A stretch of 32,000 nucleotides of DNA. Source: Candidatus Heimdallarchaeota archaeon. GTDB taxonomy: Archaea; Asgardarchaeota; Heimdallarchaeia; Heimdallarchaeales; Kariarchaeaceae. Below, one piece after another: positions 1,414 through 28,829 of this stretch; the first letter of the stretch is position 1; each line of letters begins with the position of its first letter. A program made the translations under genes and the position numbers. The DNA lies in contig JASBSB010000001.1 in NCBI GenBank assembly GCA_030149205.1, forward strand, positions 330,001 to 362,000. Direction: 5' to 3'. The notes under the pieces were generated by a model, which did no database searches, was not told the DNA's origin, and worked only from the letters and a program-made list of their open reading frames with translations.

Positions 1414-2247
1414 CTAAAGTTTCCAGTTGGGTTTTCGTTTTTCAATATAGGATTGAATACCCTCTTGACCATCCTCAGAGGCAAATAATCTGTTCTGTAA
1501 CTCTCGTTCCAGAGTTAAGCCCTCATGCAATGACATTTGTGAACCTGAGACAACTGCCCTTTTGATTAGTCCAATTGTAAGACCTGGTCCAGAAGCCAAT
1601 TTTGAAACATATTTATCCAGATTCGTAGCAAAATCATTTGAATCATAAACATAATTTACCAATCCTATGTCTAAAGCCTCATCTGGGGTAAGTAATTTTC
1701 CAGTTACCATCATGTCTATTGCCCTAGAATTTCCAATAAGCCTGCATAATCTTTGAGTTCCACCAGTCCCAGGAAGAACCCCTAGATTAACCTCAGGAAG
1801 ACCTATCTTATGTTCCTTTTCAGGATTTGATGATCTAGACATAAACCTAATATCCGCAGCTAGAGCAATTTCCAGTCCACCACCGACAGCATGCCCATCA
1901 ATCGCCACTATCACCAACTTCGGAGTTTGTTCTAACTTCAACAGTGTCTCATTTCCATGCAAACAGAAATTTCCTTTGCTCGTTGTGCTGCAGGCCTGAA
2001 GATAGCTAATTTCAGCACCTGCTGAAAAAGCCCCAGTAAATCGATTTTTTATCAAGATTATAGAAATGTCATTGTCAAATCGAGCTGTCATAATAGCCTT
2101 ATCCATTTGGATAAAAAATTCATGACTGTATGTATTCATTTTTCGCTCATTTGTAAGTTCAATAATACCTACTCGGCCTTCTTTTTTAAATTCAACTAAC
2201 GATAGGTTATCACTTTCAATATAAGTTGCACCAGGAGTTTGTTCCAT
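1414..2247 (-). CDS. Enoyl-CoA hydratase/crotonase-family protein resembling the N-terminal catalytic domain of BoxC (ring-cleaving dihydrodiol/epoxide lyase)
   Basis: Crotonase motifs FSAGAEI, AIDGHAVGGGLEIALAADIRF and IGLPEVNLGVLPGTGGTQRL. MNTYS...ARFD and KGNFCLHGNET match BoxC as recalled (LNSYD...RF, KVNFCKFTNET, LPEVPLLGVLPGTGG). The family call is firm; the BoxC relationship is inferred. Confidence 0.9.
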   Translation of the reverse strand: MEQTPGATYIESDNLSLVEFKKEGRVGIIELTNERKMNTYSHEFFIQMDKAIMTARFDNDISIILIKNRFTGAFSAGAEISYLQACSTTSKGNFCLHGNETLLKLEQTPKLVIVAIDGHAVGGGLEIALAADIRFMSRSSNPEKEHKIGLPEVNLGVLPGTGGTQRLCRLIGNSRAIDMMVTGKLLTPDEALDIGLVNYVYDSNDFATNLDKYVSKLASGPGLTIGLIKRAVVSGSQMSLHEGLTLERELQNRLFASEDGQEGIQSYIEKRKPNWKL

Positions 2248-2317
2248 AAGTATCCAACTCTTGATTCTATACCAATTTTAAAATTGTTTGGAGAACAAAC
2301 AGTCTGAATATAAAATT

Positions 2318-3103
2318 TTAAGAGGGTACTATAGATTTAAAGTCAGCATTTCGTTTTTCCTTAAATGCTGTAGCTCCCTCGATATGTTCAGAGGAAGAAA
2401 ATGCAATTCCCTGGTAAGCCGCTTCTAGCTCTTGTTGATGAGCTAAGGTCATTTCAAATGAATTGTTCAAAAGTCTTTTAGAAAGACCTATAGTCTGAAT
2501 TGGACCATTTATCCATTTTTTCATAATTGTAATCCCATAATCTTCTAATTTTTCATCAGGGATAACTTCAAGAACAAGTCCTAGATTTTGTGCTGAGCTT
2601 GCATCTATGACCTCTCTTCCAAATACCAAAAACTTTGCCCTTTGAAGCCCCATGAACCTAGATAAGAAGTAAGAGCCTTCAGCAATCAATCCTATATTAG
2701 CAAATGCAAAACCAAATTTGGAAGACCTTGACGCAAAAACAACATCTGCCGATAGAGCTAATACAATCCCTGCACCATAACATCCTCCATTTACCAAACT
2801 TATTACCGGAACATTTAGTTCCCTCACTCTATTTACAACTCCATAAATCAGTGTTAACATCCTTTGTTGTGTGGTAATCGGTTTATTTGTTCTTGATTCC
2901 ATGTCTTTAATATCTCCACCCGCAGAAAATACGGATCCGTTTGCTTTTAGAACAACACCTCTTACGTCCTTGTCTAGTCTAACTTTTTCTAAAACACTTA
3001 ATAATTCAACCAAAAGTTCTGTACTTAAAGCATTCCTTTTCTCTGGTCGATTTAAAACTACTTCAGCAATCCCTGTATTGAAATTTAACTCTACAAGTGC
3101 CAT
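2318..3103 (-). CDS. Enoyl-CoA hydratase/isomerase family protein, PaaG-like
   Basis: LNRPEKRNAL, FSAGGDIKDM, VNGGCYGAGIVLALSAD (no Glu in this helix, as in PaaG-type isomerases), AFANIGLIAEG-SYFL, EHIEGATAFKEKR. Confidence 0.88.
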   Translation of the reverse strand: MALVELNFNTGIAEVVLNRPEKRNALSTELLVELLSVLEKVRLDKDVRGVVLKANGSVFSAGGDIKDMESRTNKPITTQQRMLTLIYGVVNRVRELNVPVISLVNGGCYGAGIVLALSADVVFASRSSKFGFAFANIGLIAEGSYFLSRFMGLQRAKFLVFGREVIDASSAQNLGLVLEVIPDEKLEDYGITIMKKWINGPIQTIGLSKRLLNNSFEMTLAHQQELEAAYQGIAFSSSEHIEGATAFKEKRNADFKSIVPS

Positions 3104-3255
3104 AAGAGCAGATAATCTTGGGGTTCATAACTTTAATTGCAAAAAGAACTGAGAAACAACAAATTCACAAATTAATTTTGTTTTTTCTACAGATTTTCAA
3201 TCTAATCTTTACTTCTTAGAAGAAGAGGTTAAATGAGAATGCAAATATAAAGAGT

Positions 3256-3963
3256 ATGGAAAGAAAATCTGAAGAGGTGGTTTTCTCCTCTGCCAAAAAT
3301 CTCCCTAACAACATTAAGGATGCTTTATTCGAAATTTTTAGGTTTCAGGGAGACATTGAGTATGGATCCTATAACATTCATCTACCATGGCAGAGCAAGG
3401 CAACATCCTCAGAAGATCGATGGATGGTGGCCCGAATTGTATCTACTGAAGTCAGACACGGACTTCAGGTAACAAAATTTTTACGTCAACTCGGAGAAAG
3501 GGGGAATGAGTTGGCAGATGACCTCTTCAGAAGAAAGGTTGGAGACCATGATTTTAGGGTTTTTGAAGAGGAGTTACCAACCTGGGCAGATGTATGTGGG
3601 TTTTCGTGTTTTTTTGCTGTCACAGATCTGTATCAACTAAACCTACTGGGAAACAGTAAATATGAACCGTTAAGAAAGGCAATTCCTTTGATAATGAATG
3701 AAGAATCATTACATCCAACCTTTGGCATCAATGGTTTCAGAAAAATGATAGAAACAGATAAAATTTCTGAAGACGAAGTGGTTTCCACAGCCAAAAAATG
3801 GATTACCTTAAGTCAAGAAATATTTAACTATGGTGGAAAGATGAAAAAGGAAATTCCTAGTGAACTTGGGATTAAATGGGATGAGTCTCTATTTAGGAAT
3901 CAGCTGAAAGTTACAAACAATTCATTGTTTGAGCAAATTGGGATAGAATTTAGAGTACATTAA
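3256..3963 (+). CDS. Ferritin-like di-iron protein, PaaA/PaaC/BoxB superfamily; probable partner or altered-site subunit
   Basis: QGDIE35, TE65VRH68, LPTWADV, LYQL, NEE150SLH153. Aligns without gaps to the downstream paralogue (offset 7), but the Asp ligand position is Ala121. Confidence 0.82.
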   Translation: MERKSEEVVFSSAKNLPNNIKDALFEIFRFQGDIEYGSYNIHLPWQSKATSSEDRWMVARIVSTEVRHGLQVTKFLRQLGERGNELADDLFRRKVGDHDFRVFEEELPTWADVCGFSCFFAVTDLYQLNLLGNSKYEPLRKAIPLIMNEESLHPTFGINGFRKMIETDKISEDEVVSTAKKWITLSQEIFNYGGKMKKEIPSELGIKWDESLFRNQLKVTNNSLFEQIGIEFRVH

Positions 3964-4024
3964 TCTAGACAATCGACTATTTTTTATTCAAAACTATTAA
4001 AACCATACAGAAATACTGCGTTAT

Positions 4025-4783
4025 ATGTCTACTCGGCACATTAAGCAAGGAAAATTTGCGAAAATACGAAAATTCGAGACACCGGAAGAACTACCCGAGA
4101 AATATAGGAATCTCCTTAAAAAAATGCTCTTTGTACAAGCAGATACAGAATTTGCAAGTGTTCAACAGCATCTCGAGTGGCAACAAAATTCACCAAGCCC
4201 TGAGGATAAATGGGTATTGTCCAGAATTGTAGCTGATGAGGTGAGACACGGATTAACAATGACTCGCTTGTTAAAACAATTTGGTAAAGAAGGTGAGCAA
4301 ATGGTCCAAAAACTCCTTGCACGGAAAATTGGAGAACATACCTTAGATAGTTTTAACATAGAATTTGAAAACTGGGAATCGGTATTAGCATTTACCTGCT
4401 TTGTAGATCGGGTGGGGTTGTATCAATTAGAGGCATTTGGAGAGTGTTCTTATGCACCTTTGGCACGAGAAATGCCCTTAATGCTAAATGAAGAGAAGCT
4501 TCATATTGGGTTCGGGTATAATGGTCTTAAGAAAGTAATTTCTGATGATGGATATCTGGGAGACATGGATAGCGCACAGAAAGCGGTCAACTTTTGGCTT
4601 CCCCGTGCATTGGATATGTTTGGTCATAGTAAATCAGAGAACGCAGACCTTGCTGTTGAACTAGGAATTAAAAAATGGAACAATATTGAAATGAGAGACA
4701 GGTATTATCAAGAGGCTACACAACTCTGTGAGAGTCTTGATCTTCAGACCCCAGACATAGATGAGGGCAGAAGGATCCTATAG
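4025..4783 (+). CDS. Ferritin-like di-iron oxygenase, BoxB/PaaA-like aromatic acyl-CoA epoxidase catalytic subunit
   Basis: Full six-ligand set E42 (QADTE), E72/H75 (DEVRH), D128 (VDRVGLYQL), E157/H160 (EEKLH). Segments resemble the recalled BoxB core (QGDTEPASVEQ, TDRDGKFQL, TEEAHH) and PaaA (APS, DEAGHG, SYGPYARAM). Confidence 0.88.
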   Translation: MSTRHIKQGKFAKIRKFETPEELPEKYRNLLKKMLFVQADTEFASVQQHLEWQQNSPSPEDKWVLSRIVADEVRHGLTMTRLLKQFGKEGEQMVQKLLARKIGEHTLDSFNIEFENWESVLAFTCFVDRVGLYQLEAFGECSYAPLAREMPLMLNEEKLHIGFGYNGLKKVISDDGYLGDMDSAQKAVNFWLPRALDMFGHSKSENADLAVELGIKKWNNIEMRDRYYQEATQLCESLDLQTPDIDEGRRIL

Positions 4784-5215
4784 TTTAGATTCTAATACTT
4801 TCCAACTAGCTTCATTCATACCCAATCTTAAGAAATATTGATAAAGACCTTCATCCTTGTCTTGTACTATGGTACGAACCTGCCGAGTCCCTAACCCTTT
4901 AAACCTGTTTAAAAGCTCTTTTCCTAGCATCTTACCAACTCCTAATTTGTTAAATTCGGGGTCAACTCCAACCATGTTAATCCATCCGATTTGTTCTTCT
5001 AGACCAAAACTGTCCTGGGTCACATCTCCAATGATGAACCCAACTAATACACTATCATTAAAGGCTCCGACTGCAGTAAGACATTGTCCATAGTCTATCT
5101 TCTCCGACATCTTCTCTTCTGTCATGTTTTTCTTACCTGTTACCTTAGTGTAAATTTCTACCATTTTGGAAACATCATCTAATGTTAACTCATTAATTTC
5201 AATCATTTCTCTCAT
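4778..5215 (-). CDS. GNAT-family N-acetyltransferase
   Basis: GWINMVGVDPEFNKLGVGKMLGKELL (motif A), LYQYFLRLGM. Converges on the upstream gene with a 6-nt overlap. Confidence 0.85.
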   Translation of the reverse strand: MREMIEINELTLDDVSKMVEIYTKVTGKKNMTEEKMSEKIDYGQCLTAVGAFNDSVLVGFIIGDVTQDSFGLEEQIGWINMVGVDPEFNKLGVGKMLGKELLNRFKGLGTRQVRTIVQDKDEGLYQYFLRLGMNEASWKVLESKL

Positions 5216-5272
5216 TAACCTAATTTAGGATAAGTTATTAAATGAATTGTTCTTTGGTTTGCCAAGGATTAA

Positions 5273-6715
5273 CTAAATTCCGTAATTAATATTCACATTT
5301 TTAGTTCTTGAGAAATAGTCTAATGCGTACTTTCCCTGCTCCATACCAATTCCACTTTTCTTCCACCCACTGAATGGTGTTTGGGGGAAAGTCACAGGAT
5401 ATTCGTTTACCGAGACCATCCCAGAATCCAAATCTCTTGCAAAAATGTGTGCAAGTTTTAATTCATTTGTCCAAACCCCATTGAGCAACCCAAAATTGGT
5501 GGAGTTTGCAAGAGTAATTGCTTCCTCGACCGATGTAAACTGTGTTGCAGTGAGAACTGGACCAAAAATCTCCTCTTGAAACACTACATTCTCTTTTTCA
5601 ACATTTGACAAAATTGTAGGTTCTAGGAATGCACCGTTTTTCAAATGTTCAGGAGGTTTCCCCCCTATTAAAATTTCTGCCCCACTTTCTGCGCCCTTAT
5701 CAATATACTCCAAGACTGAACTCCTCTGATCCAAACTAACCATTGATCCGATTCTGACACCTTCATTGGTTCCTACACCAATGCTCCATTTCTTGACCTC
5801 TTCTTGTAACATATTCATAAATTTATCATGTACAGATTCTTCGACCAACAATCTTGATCCTGCCCAACACATCTGTCCTGCATTCCAAAAGATTCCAAAG
5901 GCCACACCTTTCACAGCTCTTTTCAAATTGGAGTTAGCCATTACAATATTTGCACCCTTTCCACCTAATTCTAGCGTGATTGGGGTGATATTTTCTGCGG
6001 CAGCCTTCATAACATTAATCCCAGTTTCAACACTCCCTGTTAGGCTTACACCATTGATATCAGGTGATCTAACCAATGAATCCCCAACTACCCTTCCTGA
6101 GCCAGTAATAACCTGTAAAACACCCTTTGGCAATTTTGCAACTTCGATTAGTTTGATCCATTCAAGAATTGAGAGAGGCGTTAAAGAGGCTGGTTTAGCT
6201 ATAACGGTACAACCTGTTGCCAAAGCCGGAGCAATAGACCTGATTCCAAGTTGAAAAGGAAAATTCCAAGGGATAATATGAGCAGTAACCCCTAAAGGCT
6301 GTCTTAATGTATAGTTTAATCGCTCTCCAGGAACGGGGATTGTTGTACCCTCAATCTTGTCAGCCCATCCAGCGTAGTACTCAAGCGTTTGTGCTGCAAA
6401 TCGAACATCACCTAAGGCGTCCCGAAAAGTTTTCCCATTGTTTTGACTTTCAATCAAAGCTAGTTCTTTTGCATGTTCATAAGTTATTTGAGCTAAACGG
6501 TATAACAGCCTTCCCCTTGAACTTGCATCCATATTATGCCAATCATCACCATAAAATGCTTCATTCGAGTACCTTACCGCTTTTTCTACATCTGAGACTG
6601 ATGCACTGGGCACTTTTGCGATAGTCTCCCCTGTGGCAGGGTTAAGTACCCCCATAGTTTTTTCATCTTCAGCATCAACCCATTCATTATTTAGATACAT
6701 TCTGGTGGTGTTCAT
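5273..6715 (-). CDS. NAD(P)+-dependent aldehyde dehydrogenase
   Basis: IIPWNFP, KPASLTP, LTGSVETG, LELGGKG, NAGQMC (catalytic Cys), EEIFGP, PFSGWKKSGIG. Confidence 0.96.
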   Translation of the reverse strand: MNTTRMYLNNEWVDAEDEKTMGVLNPATGETIAKVPSASVSDVEKAVRYSNEAFYGDDWHNMDASSRGRLLYRLAQITYEHAKELALIESQNNGKTFRDALGDVRFAAQTLEYYAGWADKIEGTTIPVPGERLNYTLRQPLGVTAHIIPWNFPFQLGIRSIAPALATGCTVIAKPASLTPLSILEWIKLIEVAKLPKGVLQVITGSGRVVGDSLVRSPDINGVSLTGSVETGINVMKAAAENITPITLELGGKGANIVMANSNLKRAVKGVAFGIFWNAGQMCWAGSRLLVEESVHDKFMNMLQEEVKKWSIGVGTNEGVRIGSMVSLDQRSSVLEYIDKGAESGAEILIGGKPPEHLKNGAFLEPTILSNVEKENVVFQEEIFGPVLTATQFTSVEEAITLANSTNFGLLNGVWTNELKLAHIFARDLDSGMVSVNEYPVTFPQTPFSGWKKSGIGMEQGKYALDYFSRTKNVNINYGI

Positions 6716-6926: not shown

Positions 6927-7292
6927 ATGTTAGCAAGAATGTTTGATGATTGGCTCTTCCCTAACAGGATTTTCAATGCACTTGAAAATGCATTTGAGGA
7001 AGACAGCACAAGACAACCACTAAGTAATATTGTCTATGATAAGACACAAAAGACATGGGAAGTTGAGATTGAACTCCCTGGTCTCACCAAGGATGATGTG
7101 AGCATCAAAATCATTGATGGAGCACTACATGTAACCGGTGAAAATAAGGACAAAAGCATAACCTTTCAGGCACAATACTATCTAGGGAAAGACATTGATC
7201 AGAAATCCCTGAATGCAAAGATGGAAGATGGACTCTTGATCATTAAGGCTAAAACCAATGAGCCTGAGGAGAAATTCGTAGATATACAATAG
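6927..7292 (+). CDS. Small heat shock protein (Hsp20/alpha-crystallin)
   Basis: EIELPGLTKDDVSI, LNAKMEDGLLII, C-terminal VDI motif; AGGAGG SD 8 nt upstream. Confidence 0.92.
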   Translation: MLARMFDDWLFPNRIFNALENAFEEDSTRQPLSNIVYDKTQKTWEVEIELPGLTKDDVSIKIIDGALHVTGENKDKSITFQAQYYLGKDIDQKSLNAKMEDGLLIIKAKTNEPEEKFVDIQ

Positions 7293-7303
7293 GAGGTAAT
7301 AAT

Positions 7304-7657
7304 ATGTCACAAACAAAAATAGTAAAACAAGATAACAAATTAAGTGAGGTCAAAGAACAAGAAAAGGTCACCCCCGCTCTAAGGTTCCCCAGATATTTTG
7401 TCAATCAAAATAGAGAGACGGATGAAATTGAGATCCAGTTGGAGATGCCAGGGATCAACAAAAATCACACAGAAATTAAGCTGAAAGACAACAAACTCTA
7501 CGTGAAGGCACTAAATGAAAGGAGATTTTATAAGAAAGAGTTCGAGTTCAAAAACTCCTTGAATCCTGAGGCTCTCGAGGCAAATATGGAAAATGGTGTG
7601 TTAACCATTACCGTGAGACCTCTTGAAAGCGAATCTCATAACATCACTATTGCTTAA
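7304..7657 (+). CDS. Small heat shock protein (Hsp20/alpha-crystallin), second copy
   Basis: QLEMPGINK, LEANMENGVLTITV, C-terminal ITI; SD AGGAGG 7291-7296 overlaps the previous stop codon. Confidence 0.9.
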   Translation: MSQTKIVKQDNKLSEVKEQEKVTPALRFPRYFVNQNRETDEIEIQLEMPGINKNHTEIKLKDNKLYVKALNERRFYKKEFEFKNSLNPEALEANMENGVLTITVRPLESESHNITIA

Positions 7658-7791: not shown

Positions 7792-9492
7792 ATGACTGAG
7801 GTTCAAGAAGATATTCCAATGCCGTGGTTAAAGACCTCGGAGGGAATTAGAGCCATCCATTTGAATTATGAACATGTTAGCCCATTTGAATTTGTAAAAA
7901 GGAGAGGAGAACAAACACCAAAAGATCCAGCAATTATACCATTTAAGGGAAATCCAGTTTCCTGTGGAGAATTACTAACTTCGATTAAGAAATTTCAGGT
8001 TGTGTTAAAGGAACTTGGTATAGTTAAAGGGGACAGAGTGGCAATTATGCTTCCAAATACCCCACATTATGTGATAGCACATTATGCCATCTTATCAATG
8101 GGGGCAATTGTGGTTCAAGCAAACCCACTTTACACTGAAAGAGAACTTAAGCATCAAATGGATGACTCTGGTTCAAAACTAATTATTACTCTAACGAGTT
8201 TCCAAGAAAAGGCAAATATTGTAATGAAAGAGACTGCTCTCGAAAAAGTTGTACTATGTAATATTGGGGATTACATGAAGACAATTATTCATTTTTTAGG
8301 AAGCAAAATCTTGAAAAAATTTGAAGATCCAAAAATGAAAACACTAGATAATAATTTCAATTTTATAGATCTAATGAATAAAGCAGATATATCAAAATTC
8401 GAGGAAGCTCAGGTAGATATTGAAAATGATGTCGCTATATTGCAATACACAGGAGGTACGACAGGAGTGTCAAAAGGTGCAATGCTTACACACAAAAATG
8501 TCAGCTATAATGCGCAACAGAGTCGTGAGATATTTCGAACTGTACCAGAGGGTCAGGGAAGTGTTTTAACTGCTTTGCCTATGTTTCACAGTTTTGGACT
8601 GACTGCTTGTATGAATATTTCATTTCAGTTGAAAGTCCCGATGGTTCTTATGATCAGATTTAATGTCCCAGATGCCTTAAAGTTAATTGAGAGTCAAAAG
8701 ATAACCTTTTTCCCTGGTGTTCCTACGATGCTGATTGCAATGCTTCATAGTCCAGATGTCAAAAAATTCGATCTTAGCTCTCTAATTGCTGTTATCTCTG
8801 GTGGCGCTCCCCTTCCAATTCAAGTGGCGAGAGAATTTAAACAGATTACAGGAGGAGATCTTGTTGAGGGCTATGGTTTGTCTGAGACTTCACCAGTGGT
8901 ATTCGCAAACCCTATAGGTTCAGATAAGTTCACTTTAAGAGAGGGTAGTGTAGGGATCCCTGCCCCGGACACAATCTGTAAAATCACAGATAGTGAGGAT
9001 CCAAAGAAAAACCTTCCACTTGGTGAGGTTGGAGAAATATGCCTCAAAGGTCCTCAGGTAATGAGAGGATATTGGAACCGTGAGGAAGAGACTGCAAAAA
9101 CACTGATAGATGGATGGCTACACACTGGAGATATCGGCAGGTTAGATGAAGATGGATACCTGTATATTGTTGATCGAAAGAAGGATTTAATTATTGTGTC
9201 TGGATTTAATGTGGTTCCACGAGAGGTAGAAGAAGTTCTTTATGAAAATCCAAAGGTCTTAGAAGCTGCTGTTGCAGGTCTTCCACATGAAGAGAAAGGA
9301 GAAATGGTGACTGCTTGGATTGTTCTAAAGACTGGCGAAACCTCATCTAAGGAAGAGATCCGAGAATATTGCAAGGAGAAGCTAGCACCATATAAAGTCC
9401 CACGAGAGGTTTACTTCAAAGATGAACTTCCTAAATCGATGATTGGCAAAGTATTGCGAAGAAAGCTTGTTGAAGAATACACAAAGAAATAG
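7792..9492 (+). CDS. Long-chain acyl-CoA synthetase (FadD/LcfA-like AMP-binding enzyme)
   Basis: LQYTGGTTGVSKGAMLTH, EGYGLSETSP, GWLHTGDIG, DRKKDLIIVSGFNV, LPKSMIGKVLRR. Confidence 0.95.
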   Translation: MTEVQEDIPMPWLKTSEGIRAIHLNYEHVSPFEFVKRRGEQTPKDPAIIPFKGNPVSCGELLTSIKKFQVVLKELGIVKGDRVAIMLPNTPHYVIAHYAILSMGAIVVQANPLYTERELKHQMDDSGSKLIITLTSFQEKANIVMKETALEKVVLCNIGDYMKTIIHFLGSKILKKFEDPKMKTLDNNFNFIDLMNKADISKFEEAQVDIENDVAILQYTGGTTGVSKGAMLTHKNVSYNAQQSREIFRTVPEGQGSVLTALPMFHSFGLTACMNISFQLKVPMVLMIRFNVPDALKLIESQKITFFPGVPTMLIAMLHSPDVKKFDLSSLIAVISGGAPLPIQVAREFKQITGGDLVEGYGLSETSPVVFANPIGSDKFTLREGSVGIPAPDTICKITDSEDPKKNLPLGEVGEICLKGPQVMRGYWNREEETAKTLIDGWLHTGDIGRLDEDGYLYIVDRKKDLIIVSGFNVVPREVEEVLYENPKVLEAAVAGLPHEEKGEMVTAWIVLKTGETSSKEEIREYCKEKLAPYKVPREVYFKDELPKSMIGKVLRRKLVEEYTKK

Positions 9493-10813: not shown

Positions 10814-12541
10814 ATGATCGCAAATAATGGGGGAGATCTAGTGGCATTAGCATTGAGAGAACACTCCGTTACTCAAATTTTTACACTTTGTGGGGGTCAC
10901 ATCTCTCCCATTTTAACTGGATGTGAAAAGGTTGGGATCTCCGTCTATGATGTAAGAAAGGAAGACACTGCCGTTTTTGCAGCAGATGCTAATTTTAGGT
11001 TTACCGGTATACCAGGAATTGCAGCAGTTACTGCTGGACCAGGGTTGACTAATACACTGACTGCTCTAAAGAATGCCCAAATGGCACACTCACCTCTACT
11101 TTTGTTTTCAGGGGCAGCAGCCACTATATTGAAAGGGCGTGGATCCCTTCAGGATATTGATCAGATTCGGATTGTTAAGCCATTTACGAAGGCACAGTTT
11201 AGAGTCACAAGAACAAAAGATATTGTAGGGACTATCTCAGAAGCATTTTTTGTTTCACAGAGTGGTGTTCCAGGACCCGTGTTTATTGAATTACCGATTG
11301 ATTTACTCTACCCTGAAAACATTGTGCGAGAATGGTATTTAAAAGATAGCAAAAATGCAAAATCTATTACCTCTAAGGTCTTTAATTGGTACCTGCGAAA
11401 TCACCTTAACAAAATGTACGTAAATACAAATTACAAACCAGATATTGATGTTTTACCAATTGAGTACAAAGTTGCTTCAAGATCAGATGTTCAAAAATCT
11501 CAAGAATTAATCAATGCGGCAAACAAACCTGTTTTGATTATTGGGAGTCAAATAATTAATAACAGAAATCTCGTGAATCAAATTAAAGACTTAGTTGAAG
11601 AGTTAGGAATCCCAGTGTATCTATCAGGAAGCGCAAGAGGAATTCTAGGAAGAGAACACCCACTCCAATTCAGACACAAAAGAAGTAAAGCCTTGAGGGA
11701 GGCTGATTTAATTTTATTGCTTGGTGTTCCCATGGATTTTCGCCTTAACTATGGGAGGTCTTTAAATCGAAAATCTCCACTAATAATAGTAAACCTTTCA
11801 AGAGATGATCTTAACTTAAACAATAACTTCAAAAAACCAACCTTAAAGATATTAGCTGACCCTGCATCCTACCTCAAGCAAATTTCGAAAAAACCAACCA
11901 AAGAGTATGTGGAGTGGGTAGAAAAACTTCAAGCTAATGAAAAAGAGAGGATTCAACAAATCGAAGGGTTTGCTGATATTAGCTACAATAAAACAAATCC
12001 AATTCGACTATTCATGGAGCTAGAAACTCTACTTCCAGAACAAACCATCTTTGTGGGAGATGGAGGTGATTTCTTAGCTACAGGCTCTTATATTTTAAAG
12101 CCTCGACTACCCAGGGGATGGATTGACCCAGGAGTATTTGGGACGCTAGGTGGGGGGGCTGGATTTGCCTTGGCTGCACAGATTTGTAATCCAGAAAAGA
12201 AGGTGGTTATACTTTATGGTGATGGAGCCTCAGGGTATAGTCTCATAGAATATGATAGTTTTGTTCGTCATAACCTGCCAATTTTAGGAATAGTGGGGAA
12301 TGATGCAGGGTGGACACAAATTGAGAGAGACCAAATCGAAATCTTAGAAAGTGATGTGGGAACGGTTCTCAATCATTCAGCATATGAGAAAGTTAGTATT
12401 GCACTTGGTGGAGAGGGAGAATTAATATCCTCAGATGAAGATCTAGTTCAATTATCAAAATATATAGCTAACTCTAAACCAAGATTATTGAATGTAATTT
12501 TAGCAAAGACAGAATTTAGGAAGGGATCAATTTCAATGTAA
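10814..12541 (+). CDS. ThDP-dependent enzyme, acetolactate synthase-like; closest recalled relative is eukaryotic ILVBL/HACL2 (2-hydroxyacyl-CoA lyase-like)
   Basis: [21 protein letters not shown] (catalytic Glu), [26 protein letters not shown], ThDP motif [18 protein letters not shown]...GND, C-terminal [10 protein letters not shown]. Confidence 0.9.
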
Positions 12542-24236: not shown

Positions 24237-25382
24237 ATGGTCGACAAAAATAGATTCACTTCTGTATTCCCTCTTGTAAAAGGAAAAACTGTGCGTCAAG
24301 CACATGCTGGTTTTGAAAATATTGATGGAATTTCAACTTATGAACATGAACATGGACGTCAAGGGTTTTTTGGAAAAGTAAGTCACCTGTATCATAAAAA
24401 TCCGCCAACAAATTTTACAAAAATTGATGATGGGCCTTTTAAGCCTTACATGATAGATTCCAACAGAATAAAAGTTTCTGACAAAGAGGATGAATGGGGT
24501 TCTCCCATCACTGTCATGCAAAATAGTGATTTAAAGATTAGAATCTCAAGAAGAGAAAAACCAATGCCCTTCTACTATAAATCCACAGATACTGATGACC
24601 TTTGGTTCGTCCATCGAGGGAAGGGAGTGATGGAAACATTATACGGACCACTGACATTTGAAAGAGGTGATTATATTGTAATTCCAAGGGGAACAATTTA
24701 TCGACTTGTACCAGAATCAGTGGACAACCACTTTCTCCTTATTGAAAGTTCAGAAGAAATAAACATTCCAGATAGAGGTATGTTGGGACCAACCGCACTG
24801 TTTGATCCTGCTGTTGTGGTTACTCCAGATCCTATGCCAATTGAGGATGGGAAAGAGTGGGTTGTAAGGTTTAAGAGAGGAGAGACATACACACATTACA
24901 CCTTCCCAAATAATCCTATAGATGTAATTGGTTGGAAAGGGGATGTTACGCCAATGAAACTTTCAATAAAGGATTTTAGACCAGTCAACTCACATCGTTA
25001 TCACTTACCACCAAGTGTACATACAACATGGATAAGTCAAGGATATGTTGTATGTTCGTTTGTACCTAGACCATATGAAAGCTCTGAGGATGCTTTAAAG
25101 ATACCTTTCTTTCACTCTAATGTGGAATATGATGAAGTCATATTCTATCATGAGGGGGATTTTATGAGTAGGGACAACGTTGGTGAAGGATTTCTATCGT
25201 TCCATCCAGGGGGATTCACTCATGGTCCTCATCCAAAAGCATTGAAAAGGATGTTTAAACAGGATAATCCAATGACAGATGAATATGCAGTGATGATAGA
25301 TTCAAGAAAACCTTTAGAAATAGTGGATCAATTAGGTGAAGGATTAATCAAAGACTATTGGAAATCTTGGACTGAACATTAA
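24237..25382 (+). CDS. hmgA: Homogentisate 1,2-dioxygenase (short bacterial-type)
   Basis: GFFGKVSHLYH, DDLWFVHRGKG, RYHLPPSVHTT, VVCSFVPR, PFFHSNVEYDEVIFYH, FHPGGFTHGP, EYAVMIDS. Confidence 0.93.
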   Translation: MVDKNRFTSVFPLVKGKTVRQAHAGFENIDGISTYEHEHGRQGFFGKVSHLYHKNPPTNFTKIDDGPFKPYMIDSNRIKVSDKEDEWGSPITVMQNSDLKIRISRREKPMPFYYKSTDTDDLWFVHRGKGVMETLYGPLTFERGDYIVIPRGTIYRLVPESVDNHFLLIESSEEINIPDRGMLGPTALFDPAVVVTPDPMPIEDGKEWVVRFKRGETYTHYTFPNNPIDVIGWKGDVTPMKLSIKDFRPVNSHRYHLPPSVHTTWISQGYVVCSFVPRPYESSEDALKIPFFHSNVEYDEVIFYHEGDFMSRDNVGEGFLSFHPGGFTHGPHPKALKRMFKQDNPMTDEYAVMIDSRKPLEIVDQLGEGLIKDYWKSWTEH

Positions 25383-27701: not shown

Positions 27702-28829
27702 CTATAGGTTTCCTCTTTCCTCTTGTTCTCGCTCAATTGCTTCGAATAAAGCTTTAAAATTTCCTTTGCCAAACCCTTCACTTCCTTTTCTTTGAATCAC
27801 CTCGAAAAAGAAGGTTGGGCGATCTTGAATTGGTTTGGTGAACAACTGAAGAAGATACCCTTTATCATCTCTGTCTACTAATATTCCATGTTCACTCAAT
27901 GCATTGATGTCCTCCTCTATATGTCCAACTCTCTCTGTTAGGTCTGAATAATAGGCTTTTGGTACATTTATAAATTCCACGCCTTGGCTACGCATTTGAT
28001 GTACGGTTTCAAGTATGTTATCTGTGCTTAAAGCCACGTGCTGAACACCTGCTCCATGGTAATAATTCACATACTCTTCTATCTGCGACATCTTCAAACC
28101 TTTAGCTGGTTCATTTATTGGCATTTTCACCTTTTGATTGTAACTTCTAACGACTTTTGACCGTAAGGTAGAATACTGAGTTGCTATATCTTTTTCTGAA
28201 AACTCGATAAAGTTGTCGAATCCAAAAACATTGTGATAAAATTGAATTGTTGGATCCATTTGGTTCCAGTTTACATTTCCAACGATATGGTCTATCCGAG
28301 TAACACCATTTTCTGGTAGATCTAATGGTGAAGTATACTGGTGATATCCTGGCATGTAAATTCCATCATATCCCTTTCTCTCGATGAATTTGTGAATAAC
28401 ATCTCCATATGTGGAAATTGATGAAACCTGAACCTCTCCAAATTCATCTTGAAGAGTAACAGGTTCTAAAACACTTTTTGCACCTCGATCAACTGCATTT
28501 GACCACGCCTTTCCTGCATCCCGTACAGTTAGCCCAATCGTTTTGACTCCATCCCCGTGGGTCATCTGGTGAGCTGCGATTTCACTTGAAGGGCTGTAGG
28601 GTGCGGATAATATAATTTTTGCTGAACCTTGTTGCATCACATACGACGCAAACTTACGATTCCCAGTTTTCAAGGTAGAAAATGCAACGGGTTTAAACCC
28701 TAATGCATGTTGGTAGTAGTAAGCTGCTTGGTAAGCATTTCCCACCCAAAATTCAACAGCATCAAAGTCTTCAACTGTTAATACATCAGTAGCATTTTTA
28801 ACCCCAGATTCTCGATCTAATTCTAACAT
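27702..28829 (-). CDS. hppD: 4-hydroxyphenylpyruvate dioxygenase
   Basis: FWVGNA, HGDGVK, IDHIVGNV, PINEPA, QIEEY, GVQHVAL, YLLQLFTKP, FEVIQRKGSEGFGKGNFKALFEAIEREQEERGNL. Confidence 0.97.
   Translation of the reverse strand: MLELDRESGVKNATDVLTVEDFDAVEFWVGNAYQAAYYYQHALGFKPVAFSTLKTGNRKFASYVMQQGSAKIILSAPYSPSSEIAAHQMTHGDGVKTIGLTVRDAGKAWSNAVDRGAKSVLEPVTLQDEFGEVQVSSISTYGDVIHKFIERKGYDGIYMPGYHQYTSPLDLPENGVTRIDHIVGNVNWNQMDPTIQFYHNVFGFDNFIEFSEKDIATQYSTLRSKVVRSYNQKVKMPINEPAKGLKMSQIEEYVNYYHGAGVQHVALSTDNILETVHQMRSQGVEFINVPKAYYSDLTERVGHIEEDINALSEHGILVDRDDKGYLLQLFTKPIQDRPTFFFEVIQRKGSEGFGKGNFKALFEAIEREQEERGNL

Follow-up and report, generated by a model that had tools for sequence, protein, structure and literature searches.

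A short BoxB-like di-iron protein paired with a crotonase in a Heimdallarchaeia family and in other lineages probably points to a so far unstudied route for aromatic-type CoA esters that depends on oxygen

The genome of a Candidatus Heimdallarchaeota archaeon of the Kariarchaeaceae family (3.3 Mb, 93.5% complete) encodes two short ferritin-like di-iron proteins next to two crotonases. The genes lie in a 32,000-nt stretch that was analysed as a whole and is called the window here (assembly GCA_030149205.1, contig JASBSB010000001.1; G000:C4:330001-362000). We named the four proteins DI252, DI235, ECH277 and ECH261 after their lengths in residues. An earlier note, made from the sequence of the window, had read them together with a nearby aldehyde dehydrogenase (ALDH) as a mixture of the Box and Paa pathways, which are, to our knowledge, the only CoA-dependent aerobic ring-epoxidation systems described. 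Our analyses revealed a conserved CoA-ester oxygenase module of a miniature Box type, which is real and uncharacterised. The DI252/ECH277 pair probably marks an unstudied oxygen-dependent route for CoA esters of aromatic type. The module would be a variant of the CoA-ester di-iron ring oxygenases, and we found no paper on any member of the DI252 family.

DI252 is encoded on the plus strand at positions 4025 to 4783 and matches the PaaA_PaaC family (PF05138, 98.1 bits for a cut-off of 28.5). Its scores are far below the thresholds that define BoxB (TIGR03225, 106.7 bits for a cut-off of 499.1, with only profile positions 96-325 matched), PaaA (TIGR02156, 91.5 vs 280 bits) and PaaC (TIGR02158, 20.4 vs 133 bits). 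Among proteins of solved structure, its best sequence match is SSO1313 of Saccharolobus solfataricus (4MUD, 235 residues; E 2e-33), followed by BoxB (1.8e-21) and PaaA (2.4e-16), and it shares 31% identity with BoxB and 27% with PaaA. In a HMMER alignment with Azoarcus evansii BoxB, all six iron ligands of the latter (E120/E150/H153/D211/E240/H243) are present, as E42/E72/H75/D128/E157/H160. Of the eight residues that the paper on BoxB gives, in its two lists, as positioning the benzoyl group, five are also kept, Q116/T119/S123/F193/F206 being retained as Q38/T41/S45/F110/F123 (A. evansii numbering of ligands and benzoyl-positioning residues: PMC5489048). The ligand and listed pocket positions do not vary among 15 members of the family, which come from three phyla.

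The AlphaFold model of DI252 (pLDDT 92.9) has the ferritin-like di-iron core of BoxB, and its best superposition on a solved structure is with BoxB bound to benzoyl-CoA (3PM5; TM 0.91; see also 3PER), compared with 0.83 for 4MUD and 0.81 for PaaA. The ~95-residue N-terminal and ~130-residue C-terminal extensions of BoxB are missing (252 vs ~475 residues). Based on these residues and this superposition, DI252 corresponds to the catalytic core of BoxB without its terminal extensions. The BoxB-type core of ~250 residues, about half the size of BoxB, that had been proposed from the sequence is thus found in DI252. The family is conserved across phyla at 53-60% identity. In public sources, its homologues are labelled '1,2-phenylacetyl-CoA epoxidase catalytic subunit' or 'Phenylacetic acid catabolic protein'. 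Literature searches on SSO1313, 4MUD, archaeal BoxB/PaaA, Sulfolobus paa genes and BoxB in Thermoplasmata, Gemmatimonadota or Chloroflexota yielded no characterisation. The 4MUD entry is a structural-genomics deposit titled 'ring oxydation complex/phenylacetic acid degradation-like protein', for which we found no paper.

We built a maximum-likelihood tree of 78 proteins, comprising BoxB, PaaA and PaaC references from annotated records and representatives of an exhaustive search. PaaA and PaaC together form one clade (support 99/92), and both DI252 and DI235 are outside it. The DI252 family is a separate clade (97/93), and the 4MUD type is another (100/100). Canonical BoxB (100/100) is nested in a larger BoxB-like clade (100/99), which is the named clade nearest to DI252. 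A group (100/95) unites the DI252 family, the BoxB-like clade and the 4MUD type of the Sulfolobales, leaving PaaA and PaaC apart. DI252 therefore nests neither in canonical PaaA/PaaC nor in canonical BoxB, and the phylogeny that the earlier note had called for places the di-iron proteins of the window outside those clades. Stand-alone PF05138 proteins of 243-250 residues also occur in other settings, on a Rhodococcus plasmid (L038) and on an Alteromonas plasmid (L039). In one case the neighbours include a PDR/VanB-type reductase and a PaaG-clade crotonase; in the other, they include a radical SAM protein and a MaoC dehydratase. Both PF05138 proteins have a C-terminal 'P..…R(R/K)(F/I/V)L' tail in common with DI252.

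Box needs the dedicated BoxA, and Paa needs PaaB, PaaC, PaaD and PaaE. We searched the host genome for such partners. No match to PaaB or PaaD was detected, PaaE yielded only generic FNR-like matches (at most 92.7 bits for a cut-off of 420), the best score for PaaK was 16.5 bits, and no PaaZ/PaaN-type ALDH exceeded its cut-off. The best BoxA match had 21 bits for a cut-off of 459 (TIGR03224). As the genome is 93.5% complete, these partners were not found, which is not to say that they are absent; with this proviso, and with generic FNR-like proteins as the sole PaaE matches, the lack of paaB, paaD, boxA and paaZ noted earlier stands. The only PF07848 match in the genome was considered as a possible PaaX and rejected, being a generic double winged helix-turn-helix regulator. 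These data bear on the most conservative explanation, namely that the di-iron proteins are ordinary PaaA/PaaC or BoxB whose canonical pathway is completed elsewhere in the genome. The public labels point that way, and absences from an incomplete genome are no proof. Nevertheless, the scores are far under every equivalog cut-off, the proteins branch outside the PaaA+PaaC and canonical BoxB clades, PaaB, PaaD, PaaK, PaaZ/PaaN and BoxA were not found, and the same partner-less arrangement recurs in the examined loci of other lineages. We thus regard this explanation as very improbable.

The pairing of DI252 with ECH277 is our strongest finding. We collected 87 loci of DI252 homologues, 80 of them from an alignment-based metagenome scan, and identified their genes by tblastn with reference proteins. 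Among the 68 informative loci, i.e. those with 900 nt or more ahead of the DI252 homologue, many of them close kin, 55 have an ECH277-type gene immediately upstream in the same orientation (42 of the Thermoplasmata type and 13 of the Chloroflexota type), like boxC before boxB, and six more have one within 8 kb. The contigs of two proteins (P0134 and P0137) were too short for context. Among 41 related genomes, DI252 is present in eight, and ECH277 orthologues (at least 67% identity) are present in exactly the same eight, the best matches elsewhere having at most 39% identity; these eight genomes are kin, so that this amounts to co-inheritance and not to eight independent events. ECH277 orthologues next to DI252 share 67-83% identity in family relatives, and 40-83% overall when Chloroflexota, Thermoplasmata and Sulfolobales are included. 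The arrangement is far from chance. The neighbourhood survey proposed in the earlier note showed the association of the di-iron gene with a crotonase in Thermoplasmata, Chloroflexota and Sulfolobales, and also in Gemmatimonadota, where the BoxB-like protein is longer.

DI252 was detected in eight of 301 genomes sampled from the phylum, all of one family (seven of its ten other sampled members and the host genome), and in none of the 290 genomes of the other 29 families. This distribution fits acquisition by transfer. Overall, DI252 had 547 close homologues in our searches, and the Gemmatimonadota relative described below had more than 5000. One might still argue that there is no functional unit, i.e. 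that the adjacency is fortuitous or that the proteins are non-catalytic, ferritin-like proteins for iron storage or regulation. The displaced ligand of DI235 (see below), the lack of a reductase and the rearrangement of the locus relative to same-genus genomes are points in favour of this idea, to which we give hardly any credence given that at least four phyla have conserved the pairing, that co-occurrence is perfect in the relatives and that a complete BoxB-type active site is invariant.

ECH277 is encoded on the minus strand at positions 1414 to 2247 (277 residues; ECH_1, E 5e-48). Both catalytic Glu residues are present in an alignment with PaaF and the N-terminal domain of BoxC. The protein has a single domain, in contrast with the two of BoxC, and it matches the BoxC profile over the N-terminal domain only (TIGR03222, 63.5 bits for a cut-off of 712). 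It is closest in sequence to short-chain enoyl-CoA hydratases, and, among proteins of solved structure, a Geobacillus enoyl-CoA hydratase (2PPY, 237 bits) comes first, ahead of BoxC (2W3P, 72 bits). The proposal that ECH277 is a 'half-BoxC' thus does not hold as a statement of family membership. We also built a tree of 26 crotonases, in which PaaF, PaaG and the other crotonases of the host are split (100/99) from a group containing the ECH277 family, the crotonase of a Haladaptatus paa-like cluster and the BoxC domains. A BoxC-like role of ECH277 is plausible. BoxC co-purifies with BoxB, whose product inhibition it relieves, and the two Glu residues of BoxC are placed as in PaaF (PMC4498308); such relief would provide a reason for the tight pairing of DI252 with ECH277.

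The gene of DI235 (positions 3256 to 3963, plus strand) precedes that of DI252. The protein has weaker matches to PF05138 (38.7 bits for a cut-off of 28.5), to BoxB (TIGR03225, 37.3 bits) and to PaaA (TIGR02156, 31.9 bits), and none to PaaC (TIGR02158). It is rare, with a single cluster at E<1e-30 among 1.84 billion representatives. DI235 is a fast-evolving paralogue in which five canonical iron ligands are retained. The column of the canonical Asp (D211) is occupied by Ala in DI235, and by Ala, Pro, Ser or Thr across seven family members, and an Asp three residues further on is invariant in the family. With this pattern, DI235 is neither of the PaaA type nor a ligand-less PaaC; it retains most ligands, unlike PaaC, which has lost them. 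In the tree it is nearest to the DI252 family, as the sister of the Heimdall DI252 genes (98/89). An alternative topology with DI235 outside the DI252 family is compatible with the data (p-AU 0.63), and forcing it with PaaA/PaaC costs 40 lnL units and is disfavoured (p-AU 0.037). The suggestion that the locus combines BoxB-type and PaaA-type proteins is therefore correct for the BoxB-type DI252 only, DI235 being a divergent paralogue of the DI252 family.

A model of the DI252-DI235 complex obtained a score of 0.89, compared with 0.65 for the best control, with at least 98% of contacts in agreement between runs and a partner pLDDT of at least 89. The mark thus passed is one that 58 of 80 solved complexes attain, as do 2 of 110 mismatched pairs, figures that hold only roughly here since we used our own alignments. 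PaaA-PaaC and 4MUD assemblies have been solved, so that the pass may reflect mere likeness, and the model does not separate a DI252/DI235 heterodimer from a homodimer. DI235 probably pairs with DI252 as PaaC does with PaaA. The combination of a catalytic di-iron subunit with a second subunit of the same fold would be reminiscent of E. coli Paa (3PW1, 4FZW). BoxB has no such second ferritin-like paralogue, in contrast with the DI252 type in three lineages.

ECH261 (positions 2318 to 3103, minus strand; 261 residues; ECH_1, E 1.7e-54) is the PaaG-like crotonase that had been recognised in the sequence, and the tree bears this assignment out. It groups with E. coli PaaG and the ECH of a Haloferax paa cluster (99/97), and its best solved relatives are the PaaG proteins of T. 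thermophilus and E. coli (132 and 126 bits). Its PaaG score is under the cut-off (TIGR02280, 163.9 vs 345 bits). ECH261 lacks both classical catalytic Glu residues, the corresponding columns being non-acidic as they are in E. coli PaaG. The latter has a 'PDCGG' motif in the loop past the second Glu position, the Asp of which we take to be catalytic. In ECH261 this loop is two residues shorter and reads 'AEGS', with a Glu near the Asp position. ECH261 is a candidate isomerase of epoxide/oxepin or double bonds. In some bacteria, PaaZ is replaced by a crotonase-type hydrolase (NF046063, 'oxepin-CoA hydrolase, alternative type') and a separate ALDH. The logic would be the same here, with a crotonase that opens the oxygenated ring and a stand-alone ALDH that oxidises the aldehyde; ECH261 differs in scoring under the NF046063 cut-off (149 vs 300 bits), and either crotonase of the window might be the hydrolase.

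The crotonase and di-iron pairs are separated by a 152-nt, A+T-rich intergenic region (positions 3104 to 3255) from which they diverge, and which is presumably a shared promoter region. Between DI252 and the ALDH is a GNAT acetyltransferase gene (positions 4778 to 5215, minus strand; 145 residues; Acetyltransf_1, E 3e-9), which shares 6 nt with the end of the DI252 gene, stop codon included. The ALDH gene follows at positions 5273 to 6715 (480 residues; Aldedh, E 2e-163). It is on the minus strand, convergent to the di-iron genes, and hence outside their transcription unit. The open reading frame borders of the crotonases, di-iron genes and ALDH given in the earlier note match ours exactly, and its picture of divergent units followed by an ALDH is right as to gene positions, the strand of the ALDH and the intervening GNAT gene having been overlooked. 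In same-genus relatives, ECH277 on one strand is divergent from DI235, ECH261 and DI252, which are followed by the GNAT gene on the opposite strand. ECH261, which is between DI235 and DI252 in those genomes, has thus switched strand in the window. GNAT orthologues (43-59% identity) abut DI252 in four family-relative loci (L025, L027, L028 and L033). A GNAT gene also neighbours a PaaA-like gene of Haladaptatus; the two GNAT proteins have no sequence similarity, and this shared feature was dismissed as a coincidence. On the other side of the module, a CDC48-like AAA ATPase gene, partial at the window edge (positions 3-1325), is next to ECH277 in same-genus relatives too (48-49% identity). It serves as a synteny anchor, showing that the left border of the module is stable.

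Outside the host family, the DI252/ECH277 pair is found in several genetic environments. In the Sulfolobales locus, a crotonase (40-46% identity to the ECH277 type) and a 255-residue protein of the DI252 type (47% identity) are divergent from genes for a 226-residue protein of the 4MUD type, an AMP-ligase/CoA ligase and PaaX. The architecture is the same as in the window, with an SSO1313 orthologue in divergent orientation beside the DI252-type and ECH277-type genes; SSO1313 itself is a second-subunit type, neither of the DI252 type nor an orthologue of DI235. The Chloroflexota cluster encodes PaaX, an ECH, DI252, another ECH, a CoA-transferase, NuoE-like and NuoF-like proteins and a second di-iron protein of 240 residues, which has the full ligand set and belongs to a different clade from that of DI252. 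The NuoE-like (2Fe-2S, thioredoxin-like) and NuoF-like (Complex1_51K) genes are between the two di-iron genes (L022:12534-14131). This pair occurs in all six Chloroflexota-type loci with enough downstream sequence (L022, L046, L049, L056, L057 and L023, an incomplete copy of L022). It is a candidate NADH-dependent reductase, a type that we do not know for Box or Paa oxygenases. Thus, the DI252 type, the ECH277 type and a second ferritin-like paralogue occur together in three lineages, and the second subunits belong to three separate clades. The PaaX-family regulators of these clusters and the PaaI-like thioesterases of related clusters are further likenesses to Paa, like the PaaG-clade crotonase and the nearby ALDH of the window. 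Hotdog thioesterases recur near DI252-type loci.

In three Gemmatimonadota loci, we identified an operon encoding a TetR regulator, an ECH277-type crotonase (48-52% identity), an ALDH (40-42% identity), a thiolase, a PaaG-like ECH, a BoxB-like protein of 371-376 residues (35% identity), a glycerophosphodiester phosphodiesterase (GDPD), a 3-hydroxyacyl-CoA dehydrogenase (HCDH), an ECH and an amidohydrolase. As in the window, ECH277-type and PaaG-like crotonases, an ALDH and a BoxB-like di-iron protein are found together. The operon differs by the greater length of the di-iron protein, which is in the BoxB-like clade and is labelled 'benzoyl-CoA 2,3-dioxygenase component B' by JGI, by the lack of a second paralogue and by the additional thiolase, HCDH, ECH, GDPD and amidohydrolase genes. 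No reductase is encoded within it. The GDPD gene is conserved directly after the BoxB-like gene (L133:8055-8852 and L138:11143-11802), in the midst of a CoA-ester operon. In another locus (L134:8001-12497), we found genes for an ECH277-type crotonase (54% identity) and a PaaG-like protein (36% identity to ECH261), and after them, in this order, genes for a 145-residue protein with a single, weak, sub-cut-off Pfam match (PDR_CDR, E 0.033), an Amidohydro_2 protein and a 421-residue protein with no Pfam match or solved relative.

The environment is different in the Thermoplasmata-type loci (~42), where the pair sits among housekeeping genes such as those for ribose-5-phosphate isomerase and an MVD-like decarboxylase, with only a 4HBT thioesterase nearby and no ligase, ALDH or thiolase gene. 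This setting raises the idea that DI252, ECH277 and a thioesterase, with unchanged chemistry, clear toxic or dead-end aryl-CoA esters, produced for example by 2-oxoacid:ferredoxin oxidoreductases acting on aromatic amino acids. The high conservation of the DI252 family across phyla would fit such a housekeeping task, and the host genome harbours an IOR-alpha-like gene close to the cut-off (632.6 vs 650.9 bits), which could be a source of arylacetyl-CoA without a ligase. The Chloroflexota, Sulfolobales and Gemmatimonadota versions, in contrast, resemble catabolic operons under regulation: the first two include a ligase or transferase for activation, and the third encodes beta-oxidation steps further downstream. 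Detoxification as the general role is therefore improbable in our view.

The ALDH had been considered a gene of the module. The Gemmatimonadota parallel argues for this, its strand and non-conserved adjacency argue against it, and the link is weak. ALDH orthologues (65-67% identity) occur only in three same-genus genomes (G001-G003), on contigs other than that of the module, indicating that the adjacency in the window results from a rearrangement, and no ALDH gene is present in the 20-kb relative locus L027. Two tandem HSP20 genes (window positions 6927-7657) accompany the ALDH, not the di-iron genes, in same-genus relatives; the HSP20 pair is next to the ALDH orthologue in G002 and G003, and the 4.4-kb locus of G001 showed no such pair. 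The ALDH is 49% identical to that inside the Haloferax gibbonsii paa cluster. Its PaaZ/PaaN score (TIGR02278, 140.6 bits for a cut-off of 562.8) is the best of all ALDHs of the host genome, and it lacks the hotdog-ALDH fusion of PaaZ. In the Gemmatimonadota operon, the ALDH gene directly follows that of the ECH277 type, which ties this type of crotonase to an aldehyde-forming step. The ALDH of the window is thus a possible part of the module that would oxidise the ring-opened semialdehyde. A 792-residue ALDH encoded elsewhere in the genome (G000:C2:442921-445299; L145:1422-3800) was ruled out as PaaZ, as it has no hotdog domain and adjoins a DeoC aldolase gene. It has a full ALDH domain and a second ALDH-matching stretch, and matching frames of 790-820 residues are also present in G001-G006 and G010; in three of these genomes, no DI252 was detected.

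Beyond the ALDH, the window encodes a FadD-like acyl-CoA ligase (positions 7792-9492) and a HACL/ILVBL-like thiamine diphosphate (TPP) enzyme (positions 10814-12541). The three genes are within 7 kb and represent the enzyme set of alpha-oxidation of the 2-hydroxyacyl-CoA lyase type. The ligase and TPP enzyme have no match in the di-iron loci of the relatives and are thus not linked to the module. Further on, positions 24237-25382 encode a protein with a weak HgmA_N match (homogentisate dioxygenase-like) and positions 27702-28829 a 4-hydroxyphenylpyruvate dioxygenase-like protein (Glyoxalase, HPPD_N). These two genes suggest O2-dependent breakdown of tyrosine/phenylalanine in the same genome region.

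We propose the following scheme. With O2 and two electrons from a donor, DI252 would oxygenate, most likely by epoxidation, the ring of an aryl-CoA ester resembling benzoyl-CoA. ECH277 would immediately remove the reactive product by hydration or hydrolytic ring opening, as BoxC does for BoxB. In the host genus, DI235 would be the PaaC-like partner of DI252, and ECH261 would act as a PaaG-like isomerase. An ALDH, possibly that of positions 5273-6715, would then oxidise the aldehyde so formed, and the product would enter beta-oxidation. Taken as a whole, this reading, i.e. a two-gene aryl-CoA oxygenase core composed of DI252 and ECH277, to which DI235 and ECH261 were added in the genus, with an ALDH acting downstream, is the one we lean towards, with odds only slightly on its side.

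A number of observations weigh against it. Both F203 and T210 of BoxB are replaced by Val in DI252 (V120 and V127), implying that the substrate need not be benzoyl-CoA. ECH277 is nearer to ordinary crotonases than to BoxC, and the tree does not place BoxC relative to it, the BoxC branches being long and their attachment a polytomy. No BoxA was found beside DI252, near the homologous loci or in the host genome, which also has no dedicated aryl-CoA ligase above cut-off, and no reductase is encoded near the DI252 locus. The adjacency of the ALDH is not conserved within the genus. Seven of the 68 informative loci have no nearby crotonase gene, and locus L134 has ECH277-type and PaaG-like genes with no di-iron gene within 8 kb. 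Lastly, the acyl-CoA dehydrogenase (ACAD), HCDH and thiolase genes found in the neighbourhoods fit plain beta-oxidation equally well.

These last genes are at the root of the main competing explanation, in which DI252 hydroxylates, desaturates or epoxidises a non-aromatic acyl-CoA, be it aliphatic, branched or alicyclic, and ECH277 hydrates the product in a modified beta- or alpha-oxidation. An ACAD gene is present in L025, thiolase and HCDH genes are found beside P0053 and in L022, and the Gemmatimonadota operon has thiolase, HCDH and ECH genes. The resemblance of ECH277 to short-chain enoyl-CoA hydratases and the FadD-like ligase and TPP enzyme of the window are in line with this view. Nevertheless, neither the ligase nor the TPP enzyme is syntenic in relatives, the DI252 family invariably has five of the BoxB residues that position the benzoyl ring, PaaX-family regulators are present in the Chloroflexota and Sulfolobales clusters, and the recurring PaaG-like isomerase and ALDH fit ring opening, not chain shortening. 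We thus consider a non-aromatic substrate unlikely, albeit a serious contender.

The aryl-CoA oxygenase reading may be taken further. DI252 and ECH277 could represent a minimal, widespread third system of CoA-dependent aerobic ring attack, in which a half-size BoxB-type epoxidase would do without a dedicated reductase and run on a general ferredoxin or, in Chloroflexota, on the NuoE/NuoF-like pair. Heimdall-group Asgard archaea, Chloroflexota and Sulfolobales would each have recruited a second ferritin-like subunit on their own, with convergence on the PaaA/PaaC design, and these archaea would perform O2-dependent cleavage of aromatic rings. We put this broader proposal forward tentatively, with more doubt than confidence.

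The conserved DI252-type module is shared by Thermoplasmata of soil and peat, Chloroflexota, Sulfolobales and a single Asgard family. Databases nevertheless name the family 'phenylacetyl-CoA epoxidase', although the partners implied by this label were not found. Should DI252 prove to work as an oxygenase, it would illustrate how little protein such an enzyme requires, and it would raise the question of the electron source. The Sulfolobales carriers are cultivable and genetically tractable, and the structure of a second subunit (4MUD) is solved, which makes the question directly testable. If our reading is true, it would add O2-dependent catabolism of aromatic compounds to a Heimdall-group lineage relevant to the origins of eukaryotes.

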